Origin: Candidatus Taylorbacteria bacterium RIFCSPLOWO2_01_FULL_45_34b
Lineage (GTDB): Bacteria > Patescibacteriota > Minisyncoccia > Phycocordibacterales > DSPV01
Direction: 5' to 3'
DNA: 26,569 nucleotides
NCBI GenBank assembly: GCA_001822675.1
Contig: MHRY01000044.1
Coordinates: forward strand, 1-26,569
In this document: in pieces, positions 6,833-26,448 of the stretch
How positions within the stretch are numbered: the first letter of the stretch is position 1
Layout of the letters: the number at the start of each line of letters is the position of its first letter
Notes under the pieces: model-generated
Databases searched by the model: none
What the model saw: the letters and a program-made list of their open reading frames with translations, nothing else
What the model was told of the DNA's origin: nothing
Translations under genes and position numbers: made by a program

Positions 6833-7270
6833 GCGGAGAATATGATAGCATGTTTTCTTGTCATGCCAGCTACAACTTTTTCGATTTGAAAAGTCGCAGC
6901 CCCCGCCTCCTTACGCTTCGCTCCAGTCCGGCTCGGACATTGTGAAAAAGTATTGTCGTCACGAGTTACTAAGTATTTTGCTTCGACAACTCGCAAAATA
7001 CTAAGTGCTCGCGACCCCGCCTTGCCCGTTTTTGTTGGTACAAAAACATGGCTGCGGCTCGGACAAGATAGAAAAGTCTCAAGCAGTTGAGATTTTTCTA
7101 TCTTGTCCGCCCACCTGGATTCGGCCGCGACTCAAACCTCGCCGCCGCTCGGTTTGGTCTGGCCACCGCCTCGCGATTTTTGCTACTGCAAAAATATCGC
7201 TCCGGCGTTCGAATCCAGACACCCCGCAAGCAGTTGCGGGGTTGTGGGCGGCCAATATTCAGAAATATTG

Positions 7271-7342
7271 TCCGCCCACCTGGATTCGAACCAGGGACCT
7301 TACGCTTAAGAGGCGTTTGCTCTACCAACTGAGCTATGGGCG
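7271..7342 (-). tRNA. tRNA-Lys (anticodon CTT)
   Basis: Minus-strand read CCGCCCA-TA-GCTC-AGTTGGTA-GAGC-A-AACGC-CTCTTAA-GCGTA-AGGTC-CCTGG-TTCGAAT-CCAGG-TGGGCGG-A. Canonical cloverleaf. CCA is not encoded. Confidence 0.85.
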
Positions 7343-7451
7343 GAATTCTTATGTAGCCCATAGAGAAGTCCTAACTGCTTGCCCCGTAGTGAGCTTGCTC
7401 TACTACTGGGGAGCTATGGGCGGATTTGGAAAGTGTAAGATGAAAAATACA

Positions 7452-7604
7452 AAGTGTAAAGGTTTGGCCAAGCTCTCAAATGTTGTGCTGACGCCTCATA
7501 TTGCTTCCGGAACAATCGTCGCGAGGGAAGAAATGGCTCACATGGCGGCGGAGAACCTCATCGTCTTTTTTGAGGGTAAGGTGCCGCCAAATATAGTAAA
7601 GTAG
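7452..7604 (+). pseudogene. C-terminal remnant (~50 aa) of a D-isomer-specific 2-hydroxyacid dehydrogenase
   Basis: LAKLSNVVLTPHIASGTIVAREEMAHMAAENLIVFFEGKVPPNIV matches the conserved C-terminus of the D-2-hydroxyacid dehydrogenase family. No catalytic or NAD-binding domain lies upstream; the upstream DNA is tRNA-derived debris. Confidence 0.5.
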
Positions 7605-7901: not shown

Positions 7902-8034
7902 TTTTTTGGTTGATTTCCATCATGTTTTCATATAAAAAAAACTTCAGAAAAAAAGGTTTTACCCGAACGAATTTCTTGGAGAATAATGGTTGCTCAAATG
8001 TATAGGAACGAGTAGCTCGTATTTAAATAAAGTT

Positions 8035-8535
8035 ATGTTACGTTTAAGGAAAAATTCGCGCGGGTTTACCCTGATCGAGCTTCTGGTGGTCATTTCAATT
8101 ATTGGCCTGCTTTCTTCGGTGGTGCTTGCAAGTTTGACCAGCGCGCGGGTGAAGGCGAGGGACGCGAAGCGGAAGGCTACTTTACATCAACTTGCAACCG
8201 CGAACGAGCTCTACTTCAATGATGTCGGAAGCTATCCTTGGTTTAATGGTTGGGTTCACAATAGCGCGCCCTCCTTTGGCGGGTTGGTCCCTGCGTATAT
8301 ATCGACTGTACCATACGACCCTCTTTATCCTGGAGATTCGAATTATCAACACTGGAGAAAGGATTATCGGGGGTATACCTGTATGACCCTCAATGACGCA
8401 AGTAGATATGGTTTTTATGCAAAACTAGAGAATCCTTCAACATCTGACCCAAACTATATTTCACCGACTGTCGGGGACTCTTTCGATAGATGTGTGGCTA
8501 CTAACTGGGAAATGAATTACAAAAGGGGAAATTAA
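8035..8535 (+). CDS. Type IV pilin / pseudopilin with a prepilin N-terminal cleavage-methylation domain
   Basis: Start at the internal ATG at 8035 gives MLRLRKNSRG^FTLIELLVVISIIGLLSSVVLA, a class III signal peptide. The ORF as listed extends to 7990. Confidence 0.8.
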   Translation: MLRLRKNSRGFTLIELLVVISIIGLLSSVVLASLTSARVKARDAKRKATLHQLATANELYFNDVGSYPWFNGWVHNSAPSFGGLVPAYISTVPYDPLYPGDSNYQHWRKDYRGYTCMTLNDASRYGFYAKLENPSTSDPNYISPTVGDSFDRCVATNWEMNYKRGN

Positions 8536-10772: not shown

Positions 10773-10811
10773 TTATACCATAAAAAATCTCTCTACAAGG
10801 TTCGACCTCGT
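10773..10811 (+). repeat. Left flank module of the RAYT gene: 15-nt direct repeat ATTATACCATAAAAA + 7 nt + REP hairpin ACAAGGTTCGACCTCGT
   Basis: The same module (attataccataaaaa-N7-cgaggtcgaacctcg) recurs at 11478-11515 on the other side of the gene, in the same orientation. Confidence 0.75.
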
Positions 10812-11467
10812 TTTTCGTTGTAATGAAGCCAATCCCGTATTGTTGTCTCAAAATCTGCCACCGTTTCAAAATATCCTGGGAAAGCCTTGCGTTCAAGAAT
10901 AACTTTTTCCGGCCTGTCCACTAAAAGAAAGTCCTGATAACTTGAGTAGGAGTAGTTTTTAAGGAAGGAAAGGGCCTTCTTTTTATTCACGATGCCCGTT
11001 TCTTTCCACGTAGATTCAATCAGTTTGATTGGGTTTAGGTGGATATACGAAAATAAATATTTCATGTATTCGTCATTATCTGCGTATTCAGCTTTAAATT
11101 TTCCTTGGAAAAGTGCTCCCGTGCGTTCCTCTTTTGTATTAAAATACATAGTATAGGCTGTGGAGAGTTTTTGCATAAATTTACTGATTCCGCCTTCCAT
11201 TTTCTCCCGTACAAGAAGGTGGAAATGATTTGGCATACAACAGTATGTTCCTATATCAATAATAGTTTTTTCTCGGTCTTGGCCGAGCATAGAATTGAGT
11301 GACCAATCAGAGTTGGTAATATGAACCGGGTTTGTACTATTGCACATATAAAGAAGTCCGATAAAACGTTTGTAATCACGATCAGCATTAAAAATTTTTC
11401 TTTTGTCCGTGCCTCTGTTATAGACATGGTAGTATCCATCTATAGAGATTTCAATATTTCTGGTCAT
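10793..11467 (-). CDS. REP-associated tyrosine transposase (RAYT; IS200-like Y1 HUH transposase family)
   Basis: 224 aa. YHVYNRG ... CMPNHFHLLV (HuH) ... GALFQGKFKA ... YIHLNPIK ... YSYSSYQDF (catalytic Tyr region). The motif order and spacing match the RAYT/TnpA_REP branch rather than the short IS200 TnpA. Flanked on both sides by REP hairpins. Confidence 0.85.
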   Translation of the reverse strand: MTRNIEISIDGYYHVYNRGTDKRKIFNADRDYKRFIGLLYMCNSTNPVHITNSDWSLNSMLGQDREKTIIDIGTYCCMPNHFHLLVREKMEGGISKFMQKLSTAYTMYFNTKEERTGALFQGKFKAEYADNDEYMKYLFSYIHLNPIKLIESTWKETGIVNKKKALSFLKNYSYSSYQDFLLVDRPEKVILERKAFPGYFETVADFETTIRDWLHYNEKRGRTL

Positions 11468-18984: not shown

Positions 18985-21105
18985 ATGGCTAAAACAAAAA
19001 ATTTGAAGGGGCAGGAGGAAGCGACAAAAAAACAAAACGGTTCGGGGCCTGCCCGTACCGAAACGGTACGTTCGGGCGGGCATCATTATGACGCTTCAGC
19101 TATTACCGTTCTTGAAGGTTTGGAGCCGGTACGCAAGCGCCCGGGCATGTATATCGGTACCACGGGGCCGGACGGTTTACACCACCTCATTACCGAAATT
19201 TTCGACAACTCGCGCGACGAAGCGATGGGTGGTTTTTGCAATGATATTGAAATCGTACTTTTGCCGGGTAACCGAGTGCGGGTTACGGACAACGGCCGTG
19301 GTGTTCCGGTTGATATTCACAAGCAGACCAAAGTTTCGGCGCTTGAAACCATTATGACCACGCTTCACGCTGGCGGCAAGTTCGGCGGCGAAGGCTACAA
19401 AGTCTCCGGCGGTCTTCACGGGGTCGGCGCTTCGGTTGTAAACGCCCTTTCCATCTTCTGCGAAGTGGTGGTGCATCGCGATGGTGGCGTCTACTATCAG
19501 GAATACAAACAAGGCAAAGCCAAAGCCCGCGTCAAAAAAATTGGCACTTCGAAATCTCACGGGACTATTGTGACATTCGAGGCTGATCCGGAAATTTTTC
19601 CAATCATTGAGTATGATTTCAGCCGTGTTGTAAGTCACATGCGCCAACAGGCGTACCTCGTCAAGGGTCTCCGGATTTCGGTCATTGACGCGCGGTCTTT
19701 CAAAGAGAACATTGACCTTGCAGATGTCTTTTATTTCCGCGAGCTCGCGTTTGAAGTTCCTTCTCAAACTTTTTATTTCGAAGGAGGTCTGCTTTCTTTC
19801 ATCGCTTTTTATAACAAACTCCAAAAACCGCTCCACAAAAATATTTTTTACATTGAAAAGAAAGTGGAGGGAGTTGAATCCGTAGAGATTGCGCTTCAAT
19901 ATGTCGATGACATTTCCGCCCGTATTTTGCCTTTCGCCAACAATATCTACACCGCCGAGGGAGGGACGCATTTAACCGGTTTTAAGACTGCGCTCACTCG
20001 AACGCTCAATACGTACGCCAAGCAAAATGGATTGGTCAAAGACGGTGAAGATAGTTTTACCGGAGACGACGTGCTCGAGGGTATCACCGCGGTTATTTCG
20101 GTCAAGATTCGGGAAATTCAATTTGAAGGTCAGACAAAGGCGAAACTCGGTAGCGTCGAAGCCCAGAGTGCAGTGACAACTGTTTTTGGCGAGTCCTTCG
20201 CGGCGTTTTTGGAAGAGAAGCCAGATGACGCACGGGCTATCATTGGTAAAGTCGTTTTGGCCATGAAGGCCAGAAAGGCGGCCAAAGCGGCCAAAGACAG
20301 CGTGCTTCGAAAAGGCGCGCTCGAGGGCATGACGCTCCCCGGAAAATTGGCGGACTGCCAATCCAAAGATCCCGCTGAATCCGAGCTGTTTATTGTGGAA
20401 GGCGATAGTGCCGGAGGTTCATCAAAAATGGGCAGAGATCGCCGTATTCAAGCCATTCTACCGCTTCGCGGCAAAATTTTAAACATCGAACGAGCTCGAC
20501 TTGATCGGATGCTTTCGTCGGAGCAGATTAAAAATTTGGTCATAGCGCTTGGCACGGCCATTGGGGATACGTTTGAAATTGGCAAACTGCGTTATCATAA
20601 AATTATTATTGCCACTGATGCCGACGTTGACGGCGCTCATATTCGCACGCTCATTTTGACGCTTCTTTACCGCTACTTCAAACCGCTTATTGAAGGTGGT
20701 TTTATCTACATTGCCCAGTCTCCGCTCTACAAAATCAAGAAAGGCCAAGAGTTTTTGTATTTTTATAGCGATGATGAGAAAAACAAGTTTTTGAAAAAAG
20801 AAGGAGTGGCCGCGGCGGATTTGGAAGAAAACGAGGAAGAAAAAACAGCCCCCGATTCTTCCGAAGCTCCTGAAGCTAAGAAGCTTCCTAAGCTTTCCAT
20901 TCAGCGTTACAAAGGTTTGGGTGAAATGAATCCGGACGAGTTGTGGGAGACAACCATGGATCCGGCGCGCAGAATTTTAAAACAAGTGCACATAGAAGAT
21001 ATGCAGGAAGCAGACAAGATTTTTGACATGCTCATGGGCACCGATGTGCCGGCTCGCAAATCGTTCATCCAGTCGAATGCAAAATTGGCGAATCTAGATA
21101 TTTAA
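18985..21105 (+). CDS. gyrB: DNA gyrase subunit B
   Basis: GLHHLITEIFDNSRDEAMGG (GHKL ATPase N-box), the Toprim region EGDSAGGS and the C-terminal QRYKGLGEMNPDELWETTMDP. The alternative, topoisomerase IV ParE, is not excluded. Confidence 0.88.
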   Translation: MAKTKNLKGQEEATKKQNGSGPARTETVRSGGHHYDASAITVLEGLEPVRKRPGMYIGTTGPDGLHHLITEIFDNSRDEAMGGFCNDIEIVLLPGNRVRVTDNGRGVPVDIHKQTKVSALETIMTTLHAGGKFGGEGYKVSGGLHGVGASVVNALSIFCEVVVHRDGGVYYQEYKQGKAKARVKKIGTSKSHGTIVTFEADPEIFPIIEYDFSRVVSHMRQQAYLVKGLRISVIDARSFKENIDLADVFYFRELAFEVPSQTFYFEGGLLSFIAFYNKLQKPLHKNIFYIEKKVEGVESVEIALQYVDDISARILPFANNIYTAEGGTHLTGFKTALTRTLNTYAKQNGLVKDGEDSFTGDDVLEGITAVISVKIREIQFEGQTKAKLGSVEAQSAVTTVFGESFAAFLEEKPDDARAIIGKVVLAMKARKAAKAAKDSVLRKGALEGMTLPGKLADCQSKDPAESELFIVEGDSAGGSSKMGRDRRIQAILPLRGKILNIERARLDRMLSSEQIKNLVIALGTAIGDTFEIGKLRYHKIIIATDADVDGAHIRTLILTLLYRYFKPLIEGGFIYIAQSPLYKIKKGQEFLYFYSDDEKNKFLKKEGVAAADLEENEEEKTAPDSSEAPEAKKLPKLSIQRYKGLGEMNPDELWETTMDPARRILKQVHIEDMQEADKIFDMLMGTDVPARKSFIQSNAKLANLDI

Positions 21106-21208
21106 CATGACACCAATATATCCCGATTTCATTTACGAAATCGAGGATCCTCGGTTCGATAAATCGAATCGGGACGAATGAGTGCGAATAAGCACTAATG
21201 ACACGAAT

Positions 21209-21247
21209 AAAAAAGACGGCTCGCCGTGAAAGGGGGAGTCGTCTTTT
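21209..21247 (+). terminator. Bidirectional intrinsic-terminator-like hairpin after gyrB
   Basis: aaaaaagacggctc-gccgtgaaaggg-ggagtcgtctttt. A-run before and T-run after a ~10-bp stem. Confidence 0.55.
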
Positions 21248-21642
21248 GGGTGACCTTTCGAAGTTAGGCAAACTCTGGGATGAAGGGGAGATCTTTGCTG
21301 TCGATTCCCATGACTTGGGAAGCCGTGAAAGCTTGACCTCCCCCAAGCGCTTTGAGAGTTGTTTCTTTCGTGTGGTGTCCCTAGAGGACAAGGTACTCCG
21401 GATGTTTTGGGTGCTGACTTACCTCGGTCATAAGGTTGGTGGCAAACTTTCCCACTTCTGTTTGGTGCCATGTCCGACCTTTTCGGTGGAGAACGGTCAT
21501 TTTCAGTTCGTGGCGGTTCTTTTCGATCTGCATTCGCATCAAGTTCGTGGATTTTTTCTGGGTTTCTTGGTTTTGGTAGCCTCAACAGGCTGTTTCTTCT
21601 GAAGAAAGGCTAACATGAATATAAAGGTATATCAAGTAGAAT

Positions 21643-21676
21643 GAACCCCCGCTTCGCGAACGCGAAGCGGGGGTTC
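21643..21676 (+). terminator. Perfect 16-bp-stem palindromic terminator
   Basis: gaacccccgcttcgcg-aa-cgcgaagcgggggttc followed by atctttctttt. Lies between convergent transcription units. Confidence 0.7.
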
Positions 21677-21728
21677 ATCTTTCTTTTATACTTTATACTA
21701 ATACTTGATACGCTATACGTTCCTTGGT

Positions 21729-22826
21729 TTAGAAAATGACGCCGTTTATGGTGTATTTTACGATGTTGTTGTCGCGGGTTACGTCAGGAAGATATCCCGT
21801 TGGATCAATGTTTATAGTAAATATGTTGCCATTTTTGTTTTCGATTTTGTCGAAGCCAAGCGTGAATTCGATCCGGTCATTTGGCGCAAGTGCGCCTTGC
21901 GAATCGGACGTGAAAATATGATTAGGGAAGGTTGGGAGCACCGCATTGAAATACCAGTCCGAAGACGTTTTGTTTCCGAGGTTTATGACTTCAAAACGAA
22001 CCGCGATTCGATCGGTTGAATGAAGTGTCGTGGTCGACATAAATTCATTGGTAATTTTATCGATAACACCGACTTCAATAATCTTCGCGGCCAAATCCGG
22101 TTTGCCGGTTTCCGACGCTCCGGCAGTCGTTCCTGAAATCAAATACGTGTTTTCCGTTTTTGTTCCGGCTTTCGGATCAACCGGCGCGGGTTTGACTGCC
22201 ACAGCCCCTGTTTTTTTAGGGGGAGTGGTTGGTGTTGCTGATTTGGTTGCAGTCCCCGATGCTTTGGTTGTGCCCAAAATACCGTCGCGGCTGTTTGAAA
22301 GCGATTCATTGGCGACCATGATCATGGCAGAAGCAGAGAGTGGATTTTCCTCGGAGCCATTTTTTATAAAAGTAAGCGTAACCGGAATGCTTCCGTAGCG
22401 GTTTTTCTTTGAAGTAACGATGAAAGAAGCACTCGTGGCGTCATTTGGTAAAAGCAATTTTTCGTCGCATGCCAAGGTAGCGTTTTTGCCCCCGCTAGTT
22501 TCTTTTAGTTCAAGAACGATGCCGTCTGTGCATCCGTAGGTGAAAACGTATTCGCCCTCACCGCTTTTGTTTTCATGTTTCCATGAAAGAGTAATTGTTT
22601 GACCGGAAGAAACGCTCAAGTTTGGCACTTCAAGTATCAAAGTTTCTGCTCCCTTGAAAGTTTTGGTGAGAGAGATAACGGAAGCATACATATCATTTAG
22701 ATTTTTTGGGATACCCGCAAAATTGGTGCTGCCAATCCAGGCGCCGACACCAAGTATGACAAGGAGGGTGACGGTAACGCCTACCTTTGCAAGAGTGTTT
22801 CTTTTGGTTCCCGATATGTTTTCCAT
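21729..22826 (-). CDS. Hypothetical secreted/anchored surface protein with a Thr/Pro-rich linker and a C-terminal beta-rich (CARDB-like?) domain
   Basis: 365 aa. N-terminal TM/signal (VGVTVTLLVILGVGAWIG), a TATKSATPTTPPKKTGAVAVKPAPVDPK linker, and a C-terminal RFEVINLGNKTSSDWYFNAVL segment. Confidence 0.55.
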   Translation of the reverse strand: MENISGTKRNTLAKVGVTVTLLVILGVGAWIGSTNFAGIPKNLNDMYASVISLTKTFKGAETLILEVPNLSVSSGQTITLSWKHENKSGEGEYVFTYGCTDGIVLELKETSGGKNATLACDEKLLLPNDATSASFIVTSKKNRYGSIPVTLTFIKNGSEENPLSASAMIMVANESLSNSRDGILGTTKASGTATKSATPTTPPKKTGAVAVKPAPVDPKAGTKTENTYLISGTTAGASETGKPDLAAKIIEVGVIDKITNEFMSTTTLHSTDRIAVRFEVINLGNKTSSDWYFNAVLPTFPNHIFTSDSQGALAPNDRIEFTLGFDKIENKNGNIFTINIDPTGYLPDVTRDNNIVKYTINGVIF

Positions 22827-23011
22827 GATTTTTATCTGATTTGTTAAGTGTAGATTTTTTAGTAATACTCCAATTGACGCTTCAATACTATTGACATACT
22901 TAAATTTGTAGTGTATATTGAAACCGTGGATTTATTTTGATGTAAAACATCCTATCATACTTTTAATTATTGTCAATAGTTTTACGTCCCCATATTTCCG
23001 TTCTCATTTTT

Positions 23012-23686
23012 ATGAATACCTTTTTGTCGACAATTAAATGGGTAATTGTTGTATTTATGGCTTCTTTAGGGCTTCTTTTTGCCATGGGTTTTGTGCCGGT
23101 TGAAATTAAAGATGCTGCCCAAAGTTTCGTTTCTTTCGGTCAAAGTATCTACCAGCCGGATGTTTCAGCCGAAAGTAATGGAATTGTCCCTGTTCCTGAC
23201 ACGGATGGTTTTATCACGCCGACCGCCCTTTCCATTCAGCCAAAAATGATTAGTATTGAAAAAATTGGGGTTTTGACTAGTATTGAAAATCCAGACAGTC
23301 GGGATATCAGCGTTCTCGACCAAGCACTTCAAAAAGGCGTTGTCCACTACCCGGGCTCCGGTTCCCTCGAGGACGACAGCAACATGTTTCTCTTTGGTCA
23401 CAGCACGACTATAAAGACGGTTAGGAATCAGGCATACAAGGCGCTGAATCGCCTTGGCGAACTTGCGCTTGGAGATGAAATCAAGGTTCGTTCAGATGAT
23501 CGCGAATACGTCTACACCGTTTTCTCGGTTTCCTTGGTAGATCAGAATGAAGCTTTGGTTGAATTTTCGAAGGGCAAGCGTATGCTGACCCTTTCAACCT
23601 GCAACACCTTCGGCGCGAGAGAAGAGCGATTCGTCGTAGAAGCCAAGTACGCGCGAGACTACGAAATTTCCAACATGTTAAATTAA
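23012..23686 (+). CDS. Sortase-family transpeptidase
   Basis: N-terminal TM, then HYPGSGSLEDDSNMFLFGHS (catalytic His), LTLSTCNTFG (TLxTC catalytic Cys) and a downstream Arg (RFVVEAKYAR). Start could be 22970 or 23012. Confidence 0.8.
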   Translation: MNTFLSTIKWVIVVFMASLGLLFAMGFVPVEIKDAAQSFVSFGQSIYQPDVSAESNGIVPVPDTDGFITPTALSIQPKMISIEKIGVLTSIENPDSRDISVLDQALQKGVVHYPGSGSLEDDSNMFLFGHSTTIKTVRNQAYKALNRLGELALGDEIKVRSDDREYVYTVFSVSLVDQNEALVEFSKGKRMLTLSTCNTFGAREERFVVEAKYARDYEISNMLN

Positions 23687-23718
23687 AAAAACAAGAATCG
23701 CTTATTTTAGAAAAGAGT

Positions 23719-26358
23719 ATGATGCAGAATAATAACAAAAACATGAAAAAGATGACGTCCAGACTTTTTGGTTTTCGTTTTCCGATACTCGGACTTGTTC
23801 TGACTGCCGCCTTCTTTGGTTTCTCGAACAATGTTGCTTTGGCATGGAATCTTCAAGGATCTTGTTCTGTGGCGCCTGCTTCACCGAATATTGGCGAGAC
23901 TGTAACGTGGACGGCTACGCAGACATCTACCATGACGCCAAGCCAAGGTCATTATGAATATTCATGGAGCGGCACTGACGGACTAGCTGGCATCTCGAAC
24001 CCTGTTTCAAAAAGTTACGCGACTACTGGCACCAAAAATGCCACGGTGGTTATTATGCTTGTTTTAAATGCCGGTGGTCGTGAGAAGATTACCCGAAATT
24101 GTTTCACTGTTGTGAAAACTTCTCCACCACTGCCTGGTCAATGCAAACTTGAAATGACTAAGGAGGTTGATAAAGCAACTGCAACAGTTGGCGATGTGCT
24201 TACCTATACGCTTACTTTTAAAAATAGCGGAGACGCCGACTGCACTGGCGGCGGCGTGCGAATTCAGGATGTTGTAGATTCAGCGCTCACGTATCAAAGT
24301 GAAACTCGTAGCGGCAACGTTGATGTGGGATACAACAGCATTCCGCTTTACAGCGCCTCGACTCGGACGTTGAATTGGAATGGCAATGTGTTGACGCCGG
24401 GTGAGAGCGGTTCAATTTCTTGGAAGGGAAAGGTCAACGAACCTGCGGCTTGCGGGGTGTTCGATATTCCTAATAAAGCCCGAATCACCTCGGCAGAGTA
24501 TTCGCCAGCCGATCTCATGACGACCCCGAGCGTTTGGGTCGAGAGCAATACTGTTAAAACGACAATCACTAAGGATTGCCCGCTGCCACTAGAGCTTTCT
24601 GTCACATGCACTGCCAATCCTTCGGCTGTCCAGACTGGCGATGCTGTTACATGGAGTTCCACCGCTTCCGGCGGGGTTGGTTCGTATACATATAGTTGGA
24701 CAGGAGATGACGGTTTTTCTAGTACCGACCAAACTGATTCAAAATCGTACACGTCATCGGGTACTAAAAATGCCACAGTAACGGTTACCTCCAGTTCTGA
24801 AACTATTTCAAAAACCTGCACCACTTCCGTGGCGTCGCCCACGTCTTCACCCTCTCCGCTTTCGGGAAGTTGTGCTGTCAGCCCGACAGCTGTAGAAATC
24901 GGTCAGGAAGTTACCTGGAGCGCTAGCGCAACTGGCGGCACAGGTTCTTATACCTATTCATGGTCTGGTACTGATGGTTTGACTGGTTCGGACGCTTCCG
25001 TCAGCCGCTCCTATGCTTCATCAGGAACCAAGATGGGCAATGTCACTATTACTTCCGGATCGGAGTCAATAACTTCAAATGCTTGTTCTGTTGATATTAA
25101 ACCGTCTTCGACTTGCACGAGTAATTGCGGCGGAGGTGGAGGTGTGGGTGGCGGGGGTGGTTACAATCCGCCAACGGTGGTGCTTCTTAAAAAGGCCGAG
25201 AAACTGCCACTCGCATTCGTGTACTTAAGCCAAATTCCATACACTGGTTTTGGCGACAGTTTTAAAGTTATTGCTTTTATTCTCGGACTAATTATCTGGA
25301 GTATTTTAGTTGTATATCTTTTTAAGTCTGGTATCATTCTTCGGGTTATTGAGAGAATTCAAAAACGTTTAAAACGAGAGGAACCTAATCTCGTCAAAGA
25401 AGAAACACAAGTTCCGATTGATGAAAATAGTCTTATTACCGAGAGCCCAGATTATCAAAAATATATGGAAGAAGATTCCACAACCACATATAAGCATAGC
25501 AACCAATCGTACGCATATGCCGGTATTTCGGCAAACCCCTCTTTTATTCCGGACAATCTGCCCGGGGAAGACATTTCGCTTGAACCGACTGTGGTGGATG
25601 AGCGAAATATTCGCGAAGCGCTTTTGGCAAAAGCCCGCGAGCGAAAAACTCTTATCTCTGAAGACGCAGTCAAACTTCTGCTCCAATCTTTGTCGGGTAA
25701 TTACGCCAAGGCCGAAACGGCACTTACAAAAGTGATTGACGATGCCGAGACCAAGTATGTCAAAGAGGACGGTTGGATTTTACTCAATCGTGAAAAGATG
25801 GCGCTTCTTTTACCAACTCCTCATTTTTCTGTGAATTCTTCAAAAACAACGCCTCCAGCGCCAAATGGCATGTTTGTTCCGACCGCGCTTGAGCGAGAGA
25901 GTTATGCTTTGCCTCGTTTTTCGGATAAAGCTCCGGTTGCGAAGGTTGAAAATACTACAGCTCCGGTCCCTGCGCCTGTTTCCTACGCGCAGACTTCGAA
26001 TCATTCAAATAGCGCTCCTGTCTTTCTTTCAACATTGTCATTTATTCGGGCAATTGTTGCAAAGGATAGCCAGAAAGTATTTGCAGTACTCCGCACGCTT
26101 CGACAAGAAGGTAAAAATGTCGAAGACTTTATCAAATCCGTTATCTACGAACTTGATGAGGCGTATCGCGGACGCTTGGAAGAGGGAATCCGTGGTGGTA
26201 ATGTTGAACTTAAAACTGTTGTGTCAGCTTGGACGAACGATGATTTGGAAGAAGTAATTACGATTTTTCTTACCATCATTGATCAAAGTTACAAGAATTC
26301 TTTGACCGGCCTTAAGCTTGCGATCATGAGAATTTTGGATTTGAAGAAGCGAGGGTAA
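23719..26358 (+). CDS. Large cell-surface protein: signal peptide, three PKD-like ~75-aa repeats and a DUF11-like domain, Gly-run, IPYTG + TM segment, then a ~340-aa cytoplasmic tail
   Basis: Signal MKKMTSRLFGFRFPILGLVLTAAFFGFSNNVALA. Repeats are bounded by Cys with (T/V)TW ... YSWSG(T/D)DG ... SKSY ... GTKNATV. VGDVLTYTLTFKNSGDADCTG matches the DUF11-type fold. The membrane region is KLPLAFVYLSQIPYTGFGDSFKVIAFILGLIIWSILVVYLFKSG. Confidence 0.7.
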   Translation: MMQNNNKNMKKMTSRLFGFRFPILGLVLTAAFFGFSNNVALAWNLQGSCSVAPASPNIGETVTWTATQTSTMTPSQGHYEYSWSGTDGLAGISNPVSKSYATTGTKNATVVIMLVLNAGGREKITRNCFTVVKTSPPLPGQCKLEMTKEVDKATATVGDVLTYTLTFKNSGDADCTGGGVRIQDVVDSALTYQSETRSGNVDVGYNSIPLYSASTRTLNWNGNVLTPGESGSISWKGKVNEPAACGVFDIPNKARITSAEYSPADLMTTPSVWVESNTVKTTITKDCPLPLELSVTCTANPSAVQTGDAVTWSSTASGGVGSYTYSWTGDDGFSSTDQTDSKSYTSSGTKNATVTVTSSSETISKTCTTSVASPTSSPSPLSGSCAVSPTAVEIGQEVTWSASATGGTGSYTYSWSGTDGLTGSDASVSRSYASSGTKMGNVTITSGSESITSNACSVDIKPSSTCTSNCGGGGGVGGGGGYNPPTVVLLKKAEKLPLAFVYLSQIPYTGFGDSFKVIAFILGLIIWSILVVYLFKSGIILRVIERIQKRLKREEPNLVKEETQVPIDENSLITESPDYQKYMEEDSTTTYKHSNQSYAYAGISANPSFIPDNLPGEDISLEPTVVDERNIREALLAKARERKTLISEDAVKLLLQSLSGNYAKAETALTKVIDDAETKYVKEDGWILLNREKMALLLPTPHFSVNSSKTTPPAPNGMFVPTALERESYALPRFSDKAPVAKVENTTAPVPAPVSYAQTSNHSNSAPVFLSTLSFIRAIVAKDSQKVFAVLRTLRQEGKNVEDFIKSVIYELDEAYRGRLEEGIRGGNVELKTVVSAWTNDDLEEVITIFLTIIDQSYKNSLTGLKLAIMRILDLKKRG

Positions 26359-26412: not shown

Positions 26413-26448
26413 AAAATCCCCGCCGTCCTTTCGGACGGCGGGGATTTG
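26413..26448 (+). terminator. Intrinsic-terminator-like hairpin after the surface-protein gene
   Basis: aaaatccccgccgtcc-tttc-ggacggcggggatttg, a 13-bp GC-rich stem. Confidence 0.6.

Follow-up and report, generated by a model that had tools for sequence, protein, structure and literature searches.

An extended PYTG sorting signal with a dedicated sortase and a predicted clamp-loader-like tail in surface proteins of Patescibacteria

What defines a sortase substrate is a signal at the extreme C terminus, and the remnant that stays in the membrane is normally a disposable peptide. Here we describe a locus that departs from this scheme on a contig of Candidatus Taylorbacteria bacterium RIFCSPLOWO2_01_FULL_45_34b (MHRY01000044.1, positions 1–26,569 of the forward strand; this whole stretch of 26,569 nt is referred to as the window). 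The locus encodes a sortase, a surface protein of 879 amino acids (aa) with an internal PYTG-type sorting signal and, divergently transcribed, a membrane protein that we call X. The system differs from known sortase and sorting-signal systems in its new extended motif, in the internal position of the signal and in the folded cytoplasmic domains that follow it. The reading that we consider probable is a dedicated three-gene surface-display unit, in which the sortase would cleave an adhesin and leave in the membrane a stub; more speculatively, the tail of this stub, made of a lid-like and a collar-like module, may act as an organizing hub. The best homologues come from Candidatus Taylorbacteria, Kaiserbacteria and Paceibacterota, which belong to the ultra-small bacteria of the candidate phyla radiation (CPR, Patescibacteria), a radiation that ranks among the largest and least understood and in which surface biology is central to the episymbiotic lifestyle.

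The sortase and its surface protein

The sortase, the surface protein and the parts of the latter are located in the window as follows.

22970–23686, plus strand: sortase open reading frame (ORF), 238 aa, TTG start, with an N-terminal transmembrane (TM) anchor and a His/Cys/Arg triad
23719–26358, plus strand: ORF of the PYTG-signal surface protein, whole gene, 879 aa
23719–23844, plus strand: predicted signal peptide, aa 1–42, ending in VALA (hydrophobic window at aa 16–34 and sequence inspection)
23851–25128, plus strand: ectodomain with 12 Cys (Pfam and repeat self-similarity)
25129–25161, plus strand: Gly-rich hinge GGGGGVGGGGG, aa 471–481 (sequence)
25219–25248, plus strand: extended sorting motif V-Y-L-S-Q-I-P-Y-T-G, aa 501–510 (conservation across homologues)
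25261–25377, plus strand: TM helix, aa 515–535 (hydropathy 2.86), then the basic stretch KSGIILRVIERIQKRLKR, aa 536–553
25546–25566, plus strand: cytoplasmic motif I-P-D-N-L-P-G, aa 610–616, in a disordered linker (family consensus P-x-N-L-P-[TVI])
25600–25809, plus strand: module A, aa 628–697, AAA+ lid-like domain (fold comparison and profile)
26032–26352, plus strand: module B, aa 772–878, six-helix domain resembling the collar (domain III) of clamp loaders (fold comparison)

A first-pass annotation, made from the letters of the window, had described a TLxTC sortase directly upstream of the 879-aa protein on the same strand; the ORFs and Pfam confirm this arrangement, with a gap of 32 nt between the two genes. 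The public gene call for the identical contig starts both proteins at ATG codons, at 23012 for the sortase (224 aa) and at 23743 for the large protein (871 aa). The sortase ORF matches the Pfam family Sortase (PF04203) with 71.5 bits (cut-off 26.6, E = 7e-20). It begins with a hydrophobic anchor and carries the catalytic motifs FGHST (His), TLSTC (Cys) and ERFVV (Arg), the three catalytic residues being invariant in an alignment of four orthologues. Initially the enzyme had been called housekeeping-type, a label that is not established, given the low scores of all NCBIfam class models relative to their cut-offs and the position of the gene beside its substrate. No NCBIfam sortase class model reached its cut-off; class D came closest with 51.7 bits (cut-off 165), and the scores for classes E, C, F and B were 38.1 (160), 30.7 (160), 17 (166) and 13.3 (154). 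The class scores and the adjacency to the substrate speak against a housekeeping enzyme; the sortase is instead dedicated to, and linked with, its substrate and fits none of the established classes.

The large protein starts with a basic N terminus, a hydrophobic segment at aa 16–34 and VALA before W43, as judged by hydropathy and inspection. Its ectodomain consists of PKD 1 (aa 45–135), a DUF11/CLIPPER domain (aa 144–260), PKD 2 (aa 289–380) and PKD 3 (aa 381–470), in this order, with Pfam matches to PKD_4 (44.8 bits, cut-off 27, E = 1.3e-11) and DUF11 (45.0 bits, cut-off 24.6, E = 1.6e-11). The three Cys-bounded PKD-like repeats resemble one another, with pairwise alignment z-scores of 15–24 against shuffles. 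The signal peptide, the three repeats, the DUF11-like domain and the poly-Gly hinge were all found where the first-pass annotation had placed them. DUF11 has recently been renamed CLIPPER, a CnaA-like isopeptide domain in fibrillar adhesin stalks (PMC12617251).

Besides the N-terminal hydrophobic segment, aa 515–535 is the sole TM segment of the protein, and basic residues follow it at K536 and from R542 onward. About 325 residues lie beyond the basic stretch and 369 beyond G510. All 12 Cys precede the sorting motif and the tail has none. An extracellular tail is ruled out by the topology, by the positive-inside rule and because the tail has no Cys; the large cytoplasmic C-terminal region proposed at the outset is borne out by the single late TM helix, the basic residues after it and the confinement of Cys to the ectodomain. 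The long ORF could also have been a fusion, a frameshift or an assembly artefact, which is ruled out by the conservation of the same architecture in hundreds of divergent clusters.

An extended and portable sorting signal

The pentapeptide IPYTG occupies aa 506–510, and four residues separate its Gly from the TM helix. Across all frames of ORF size in the window, VYLSQIPYTG is the sole [LIV]PxTG or PYTG sequence. Of the 120 best homologues of the large protein, 111 have PxTG followed by a hydrophobic helix, with the consensus V-Y-L-S-Q-[V/I]-P-Y-T-G. In these 111 proteins P, T and G of the motif are invariant, and Y is found in 101, L in 105 and V or I in 103; no other part of the surface-protein family is as well conserved as the motif region. 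The spacing from PYTG through the TM helix to the first K/R cluster is fixed and free of gaps in 212 sequences. Counted from the motif Gly, the conserved positions in this set are F at +10, L at +14 to +16, W or A at +17, S at +18, Y at +23/24 and R or K at +28 to +30, and the window protein has W527 and S528 at the fixed positions +17 and +18. By analogy with known sortase signals, cleavage is predicted between T509 and G510. That IPYTG, the TM helix and the basic residues form a sorting signal, as was first suggested, is supported by the presence of the motif in 111 of 120 homologues, by its fixed register and by the adjacent sortase.

The number of residues beyond the motif Gly varies widely among the 111 homologues. 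It is 34–45 in 23 proteins, 46–80 in 16, 81–200 in 42 and more than 200 in 30. The 23 short proteins resemble classical C-terminal sorting signals in where they stop, and the signal of the window protein does not lie at the extreme C terminus.

An exact codon scan for YLSQVPYTG, run on one genome for each of 185,579 species, returned 54 loci. All are in metagenome-assembled genomes of Patescibacteria/CPR, bar one 2-kb contig binned as Bacteroidia. The passenger regions upstream of the signal in these 54 loci are diverse: PKD repeats, a repeat of about 90 aa that has no Pfam match, Gly/Ser/Pro-rich sequences and Asp/Tyr-rich sequences. Such diversity would be expected if the motif is a sorting signal, but not if it is a structural element specific to one domain. 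The first-pass annotation had left room for two doubts, that other substrates might use a different motif and that the IPYTG region might not be conserved; proteins of the same lineages with unrelated passengers carry the same signal, and the motif is conserved.

Six of the YLSQVPYTG proteins (loci L018, L021, L026, L031, L042 and L047) end 22–31 residues past the motif, with no convincing TM helix or basic tail, and terminate in ...VFF[MI][AV]N or ...FIMVN[I]. At L031, L042 and L047 a large sortase ORF with a PENLPT motif lies on the opposite strand, with a CARDB-like fusion in L031 and L042. This variant group may use a different retention mechanism or have a different genetic context.

Pentapeptides of the [I/V]PxTG type are established class C sortase signals, for example IPQTG in RrgB and VPDTG in RrgC (PMC5640630), and LPYTG is the motif of the group B Streptococcus (GBS) beta antigen (PMC4457541). 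In the literature on sortases, including those of Parcubacteria, Patescibacteria and Saccharibacteria, we found no description of a PYTG signal or of an internal-LPXTG architecture. A recent preprint on CPR pili deals with an unrelated chaperone-usher-like system.

Linkage of the signal to the sortase and to gene X

Of the 54 YLSQVPYTG loci, 39 could be assessed for linkage, the N terminus of the substrate lying within the 8-kb stretch retrieved. In 30 of these loci the sortase preceded the substrate on the same strand, and in 24 of the 30 it was within 400 nt. It was on the opposite strand in three of the assessable loci and none was seen in six. Linkage to an upstream sortase holds for every type of tail.

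The third gene of the locus lies on the other side of the sortase.

21729–22826, minus strand: gene X, encoding a 365-aa membrane protein, in divergent orientation to the sortase gene

The order gyrB, X on the minus strand, sortase and substrate is kept in four genomes, whose large proteins are 27–55% identical to that of the window, with a range of 27–100% across the four, and which have a single substrate gene per locus. A homologue of X adjoins the sortase in 25 YLSQVPYTG loci and has the same position in the four syntenic genomes. Homologues of X match CARDB (PF07705), and an AlphaFold2 model of X (predicted local distance difference test, pLDDT, 76) starts with a TM helix at the N terminus, followed by a beta-sandwich that has two invariant Cys, then a disordered linker rich in Thr and Pro and, last, a second beta-sandwich of the CARDB-like type. 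A fold search with X gave generic two-beta-sandwich or Ig-like matches alone, with TM-scores of about 0.2, and assigned no function; they included the N-terminal domains of PAD2, alpha-2-macroglobulin, pilus chaperones and RbmA. In loci L031 and L042 the sortase carries the CARDB-like domain of X as a C-terminal fusion, which speaks for joint action of X and the sortase. Because X is co-conserved with the sortase and sometimes fused to it, the functional unit is one of three genes (X, sortase and substrate) and not of two.

In the four syntenic genomes (window, 18985–26358; loci L002, L003 and L004) the unit stands directly downstream of gyrB, with pheS and pheT further upstream; in L004, dnaE is found two genes downstream. 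The interval of about 620 nt between gyrB and X in the window (21105–21729) contains only implausible ORFs, has no Pfam or Rfam match and includes a strong terminator, a GC-rich hairpin of 17 bp (21641–21678). At the corresponding position L003 has a gene for a 136-aa type IV pilin-like protein (N_methyl).

A tail with lid-like and collar-like modules

The region behind the TM helix had at first been described as unannotatable. Local iterative searches divide it into two independent conserved modules that are recognizable, an AAA+ lid-like module A and a module B like the collar of clamp loaders. A word-indexed homology search with the tail alone retrieved one fragment only, and the tail family was recovered from full-length matches by a local jackhmmer search and an exhaustive profile search. 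Module A occurs in 50 and module B in 34 of the 120 homologues, with both in 22. Some members have A without B, others have B without A, and in others again the two modules adjoin each other directly; in many proteins a disordered linker stands between the modules. In the AlphaFold2 model of the window protein, built on an alignment of 20 sequences, both modules have pLDDT above 90 and the linker between them is disordered.

Two fold-comparison methods were concordant on the tail. In a Foldseek search of the PDB, the top matches, about 39, were all bacterial clamp-loader subunits, among them E. coli gamma/tau and delta and B. subtilis delta, and RFC chains followed further down the top 50. The matches had a probability of 1.0 and about 254 alignment columns, which spanned both modules in the order lid, then collar. 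The predicted structure thus gives module A the fold of the lid (domain II) and places the fold of the collar (domain III) directly past it. The profile of module A also matches the lids of RFC5 and RFC4 with E of about 1e-3 (8e-4 for the RFC5/4 lid). In this alignment the sensor-2 sequence GDMR of RFC falls on GNYA in the window protein, and the position of the sensor-2 Arg is unconserved in the module A alignment. The NCBIfam holA model matches weakly at aa 626–679, with 18.1 bits against a cut-off of 80.

A true clamp-loader subunit was considered and is ruled out. The tail has no match to a P-loop family, and between the TM helix and module A there is merely a disordered linker of about 75 aa and no ATPase domain I; the sensor-2 Arg is absent as well, and family thresholds are not reached. 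Lacking the ATPase domain, the sensor-2 Arg and any family membership at the sequence level, the tail stands outside the clamp-loader families: on its predicted structure it is clamp-loader-like in fold (domains II and III).

The exhaustive search with the tail profile covered 1.84 billion representatives and, with clusters formed at 50% identity, gave 724 clusters at E ≤ 1e-3 and 585 at E ≤ 1e-10. Among the clusters listed, the module was C-terminal in all 150. Of 137 new tail-bearing representatives, 110 have xPYTG and a TM helix upstream of the tail, with V at the first position in 86, I in 13, L in 10 and M in 1; most of the others are fragments truncated at the N terminus or have the variants IPITG, IPHTG or VPETG. 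The lid-plus-collar tail is widespread and specific to the PYTG signal.

Clusters P0167 and P0193 consist of just a membrane hairpin of two helices with A and B behind it, and have neither an ectodomain nor PYTG. Their hairpins keep the signal remnants ‘LFLSQ’ and ‘LVWS’. This architecture is close to the stub expected after sortase cleavage and suggests that a membrane-tethered tail has a function of its own.

A short motif shared by tails and some sortases

The disordered linker between the TM helix and the modules can contain a short motif, PxNLP. NLP was found in 53 of 174 such linkers, in most cases within P-x-N-L-P-[TVI], where about 5 are expected from its frequency in the ectodomains of the same proteins. 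By tail type, it is present in 50 of 135 linkers of A+B tails, in 3 of 27 of A-only tails and in none of 12 of B-only tails. In the six-frame ORFs of the 54 loci (286,000 residues), P.NLP[TVIAG] occurs 12 times: in eight substrate tails, at four sortase N termini and nowhere else. The sortase versions read M[TP]PENLPT in L031, L042 and L047 and PPNLPV in L032, and the four sortases that bear them have a longer cytoplasmic N-terminal region. This distribution is robust. As for its meaning, PxNLP may be a docking peptide through which tails and some of the sortases reach one shared partner in the cytoplasm, perhaps modules A and B themselves.

Proposed mechanism and alternatives

We suggest the following course of events for the surface-display unit. 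Sec would export the precursor, which the TM helix and the basic stretch would keep in the membrane. The adjacent sortase would then cut between T509 and G510 and transfer the ectodomain to the cell wall or to another acceptor in the envelope. What stays in the membrane would be a stub of Gly, TM helix, disordered linker with PxNLP, lid-like module and collar-like module. Speculatively, the collar-like module could oligomerize precursors or stubs, as the collars of clamp loaders do, and together with the PxNLP peptide it could organize substrates and sortases at discrete sites. The tail would then be a cytoplasmic assembly or organizing hub for sorting rather than an enzyme, which is likewise speculative. 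If cleavage takes place, one gene yields two products on opposite faces of the membrane, an adhesin linked to the wall and a cytoplasmic module that stays tethered to the membrane.

Several observations weigh against this proposal. Unlike known sortase substrates, 88 of the 111 homologues extend more than 45 residues past the motif, many of them with folded domains there. The curated LPXTG-anchor models of Pfam and NCBIfam miss the signal even at E ≤ 10, with the lone exception of a 12-bit match to LPXTG_double in one homologue. Conservation of VYLSQ upstream of the pentapeptide and of residues within the TM helix, such as W and S, is unusual for a mere cleavage site and atypical for LPXTG signals, and it could mean a structural role and not recognition by the sortase. 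The similarity of the tail to clamp loaders is based on predicted structure. At the sequence level a few members have sub-threshold matches to AAA_assoc_2, the RFC lid and the Hda lid, and a few have matches to DNA_pol3_gamma3 and Rep_fac_C that are again sub-threshold (E of about 0.01–0.07). HMMER profiles of module B, built from 22 and from 44 sequences, found designed helical proteins and noise alone in the PDB, so the collar assignment rests on fold comparison. Last, most sortases, including that of the window, lack the PxNLP motif.

The first three of these observations would fit an uncleaved protein: a permanent type I membrane adhesin or receptor, in which VYLSQ[VI]PYTG is a structural juxtamembrane element, for example one that contacts X or the sortase as a scaffold, and in which the clamp-loader-like tail passes or receives information across the membrane by oligomerization. 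We hold this to be unlikely. In 23 of the 111 proteins the motif, with its register unchanged, forms a textbook C-terminal sorting signal at the end of the chain, and the residues that are invariant are exactly the P, T and G of a sortase pentapeptide. A catalytically intact sortase stands immediately upstream in most loci, whatever the tail type. Proteins that consist of a TM segment and A–B without an ectodomain also exist, so the tail needs no covalently attached ectodomain.

The sortase could instead serve as a site-1 protease, after which an intramembrane protease would cut or extract the stub and the lid–collar module, released into the cytoplasm, would report how much of the adhesin is on display. 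Such a circuit would be a large-scale analogue of streptococcal C-peptide signalling: as cited in PMC11502775, the C-peptide left in S. gordonii by sortase A cleavage interacts with a histidine kinase. The stub proposed here is like that remnant in being a product of sortase cleavage that stays in the membrane with a function of its own, and the conservation of the tail in 724 clusters and the long disordered linker that joins it to the TM helix would agree with release. The S. gordonii remnant, by the account cited in PMC11502775, measures about 30 residues and, as a peptide, acts on the histidine kinase through its TM, whereas the remnant here would have 370 residues and two folded cytoplasmic domains, and no kinase is linked to the locus. 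Moreover, none of the four syntenic genomes has a site-2 protease, a regulator or a DNA-binding element in linkage with the locus, and the modules have no recognizable effector or enzymatic motif, the sensor-2 Arg being absent. A released signal is therefore, in our estimate, quite unlikely.

We rate as very unlikely a pilus-like polymerization, in which the sortase would join ectodomains head to tail, instead of or before wall anchoring, and collar-like tails would cluster the subunits. A dedicated sortase next to its substrate resembles the pilus islets, and [I/V]PxTG signals are typical of pilins (PMC5640630). The CLIPPER/CnaA-like domain of the window protein has a weak NCBIfam match to the isopeptide-forming fimbrial domain (E = 2.7e-7, 31.4 bits, cut-off 30), and SpaA_2 is found in homologues. 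Against these stand the lack of an identified pilin motif or acceptor Lys, the single substrate gene of each locus, the class C model score far below its cut-off (30.7 bits against 160) and passenger regions that are very diverse and in part of low complexity.

Highly improbable, although the position of the unit beside gyrB is compatible with it, is a coupling of the display of host-attachment adhesins to replication, in which the collars of the stubs form rings under the membrane or dock onto or into the real clamp loader of the cell. If true, this would amount to a modern and testable version of the long-standing notion of an envelope-attached replisome, in minimal, host-dependent cells.

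Comparison with known systems

The unit proposed here, with sortase, cleaved adhesin and membrane stub, shares several properties with established sorting-signal systems such as pneumococcal pilus islet-1 (RrgB and RrgC with SrtC) and the GBS beta antigen with LPYTG. As in those systems, there is an N-terminal signal peptide, xPxTG stands about 5–10 residues before a TM helix that is followed by basic residues, a His–Cys–Arg cysteine transpeptidase is encoded beside the substrate, and the ectodomain is of an adhesin or stalk type (here PKD and the CnaA-like CLIPPER). Unlike in those systems, the motif is extended and nearly invariant and the TM sequence is conserved in a fixed register. In most members the signal lies inside the protein, with up to about 600 cytoplasmic residues after it. 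The sortase fits no established class, X is co-conserved with it and sometimes fused to it, and the lineage is CPR rather than Firmicutes or Actinobacteria.

In comparison with clamp-loader subunits (DnaX tau/gamma, HolA delta, HolB delta′, RFC small subunits and T4 gp44), the tail lacks ATPase domain I and the Walker motifs, does not conserve the sensor-2 Arg and, in module B, has no significant sequence similarity. It is also tethered to the membrane behind a sorting signal, and modules A and B occur alone as well. Isolated AAA+ lid-like domains serve as protein-interaction modules at the N termini of Pol epsilon subunit B, of the Pol alpha B subunit and of archaeal PolD DP1; unlike these, the module described here is the membrane-tethered tail of a bacterial surface protein.

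For CPR bacteria of the Paceibacteria type, the rule [VI][YF]L[SNT]x[VI]PYTG followed by a TM helix offers a means of predicting the surface proteome. Sorting-signal peptides (VYLSQIPYTGFGD, AFVYLSQIPYTGFGDS) are possible substrates for characterizing CPR sortases, and the tail, the PxNLP motif and gene X offer handles on how episymbiotic cells organize their attachment apparatus.

Flanking elements and other genes of the window

Two candidate regulatory elements flank the sortase and substrate genes.

22891–22919, plus strand: promoter-like site 5′ of the sortase, TTGACA, 17-nt spacer, TATATT (11 of 12 consensus positions; a consensus match alone)
26414–26447, no strand: GC-rich palindromic hairpin, terminator-like, about 55 nt past the stop codon of the large gene; its T-run is on the minus strand

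An Rfam scan of the window found three tRNAs and nothing in or near the sortase locus. The other genes of the window are housekeeping genes (rpsB, tsf, pheS/T, gyrB, a prfA-like gene and those for L25 and L31), together with a type IV pilin-like gene and a gene for an SLT transglycosylase; the latter is consistent with the presence of peptidoglycan. The pilin-like gene (7990–8535, plus strand) carries the prokaryotic N-terminal methylation motif (E = 1.4e-9). An ORF at 7005–7604 overlaps the gene for tRNA-Lys (7270–7343, minus strand) and is probably spurious. At 1146–2019, on the plus strand, overlapping genes for a Pol-beta-type nucleotidyltransferase (MNT-like) and a HepT-like RNase form a toxin–antitoxin pair of the HepT/MNT type. 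A gene for an IS200-like Y1 transposase (10793–11467, minus strand; Pfam Y1_Tnp, E = 5e-10) lies among the housekeeping genes.

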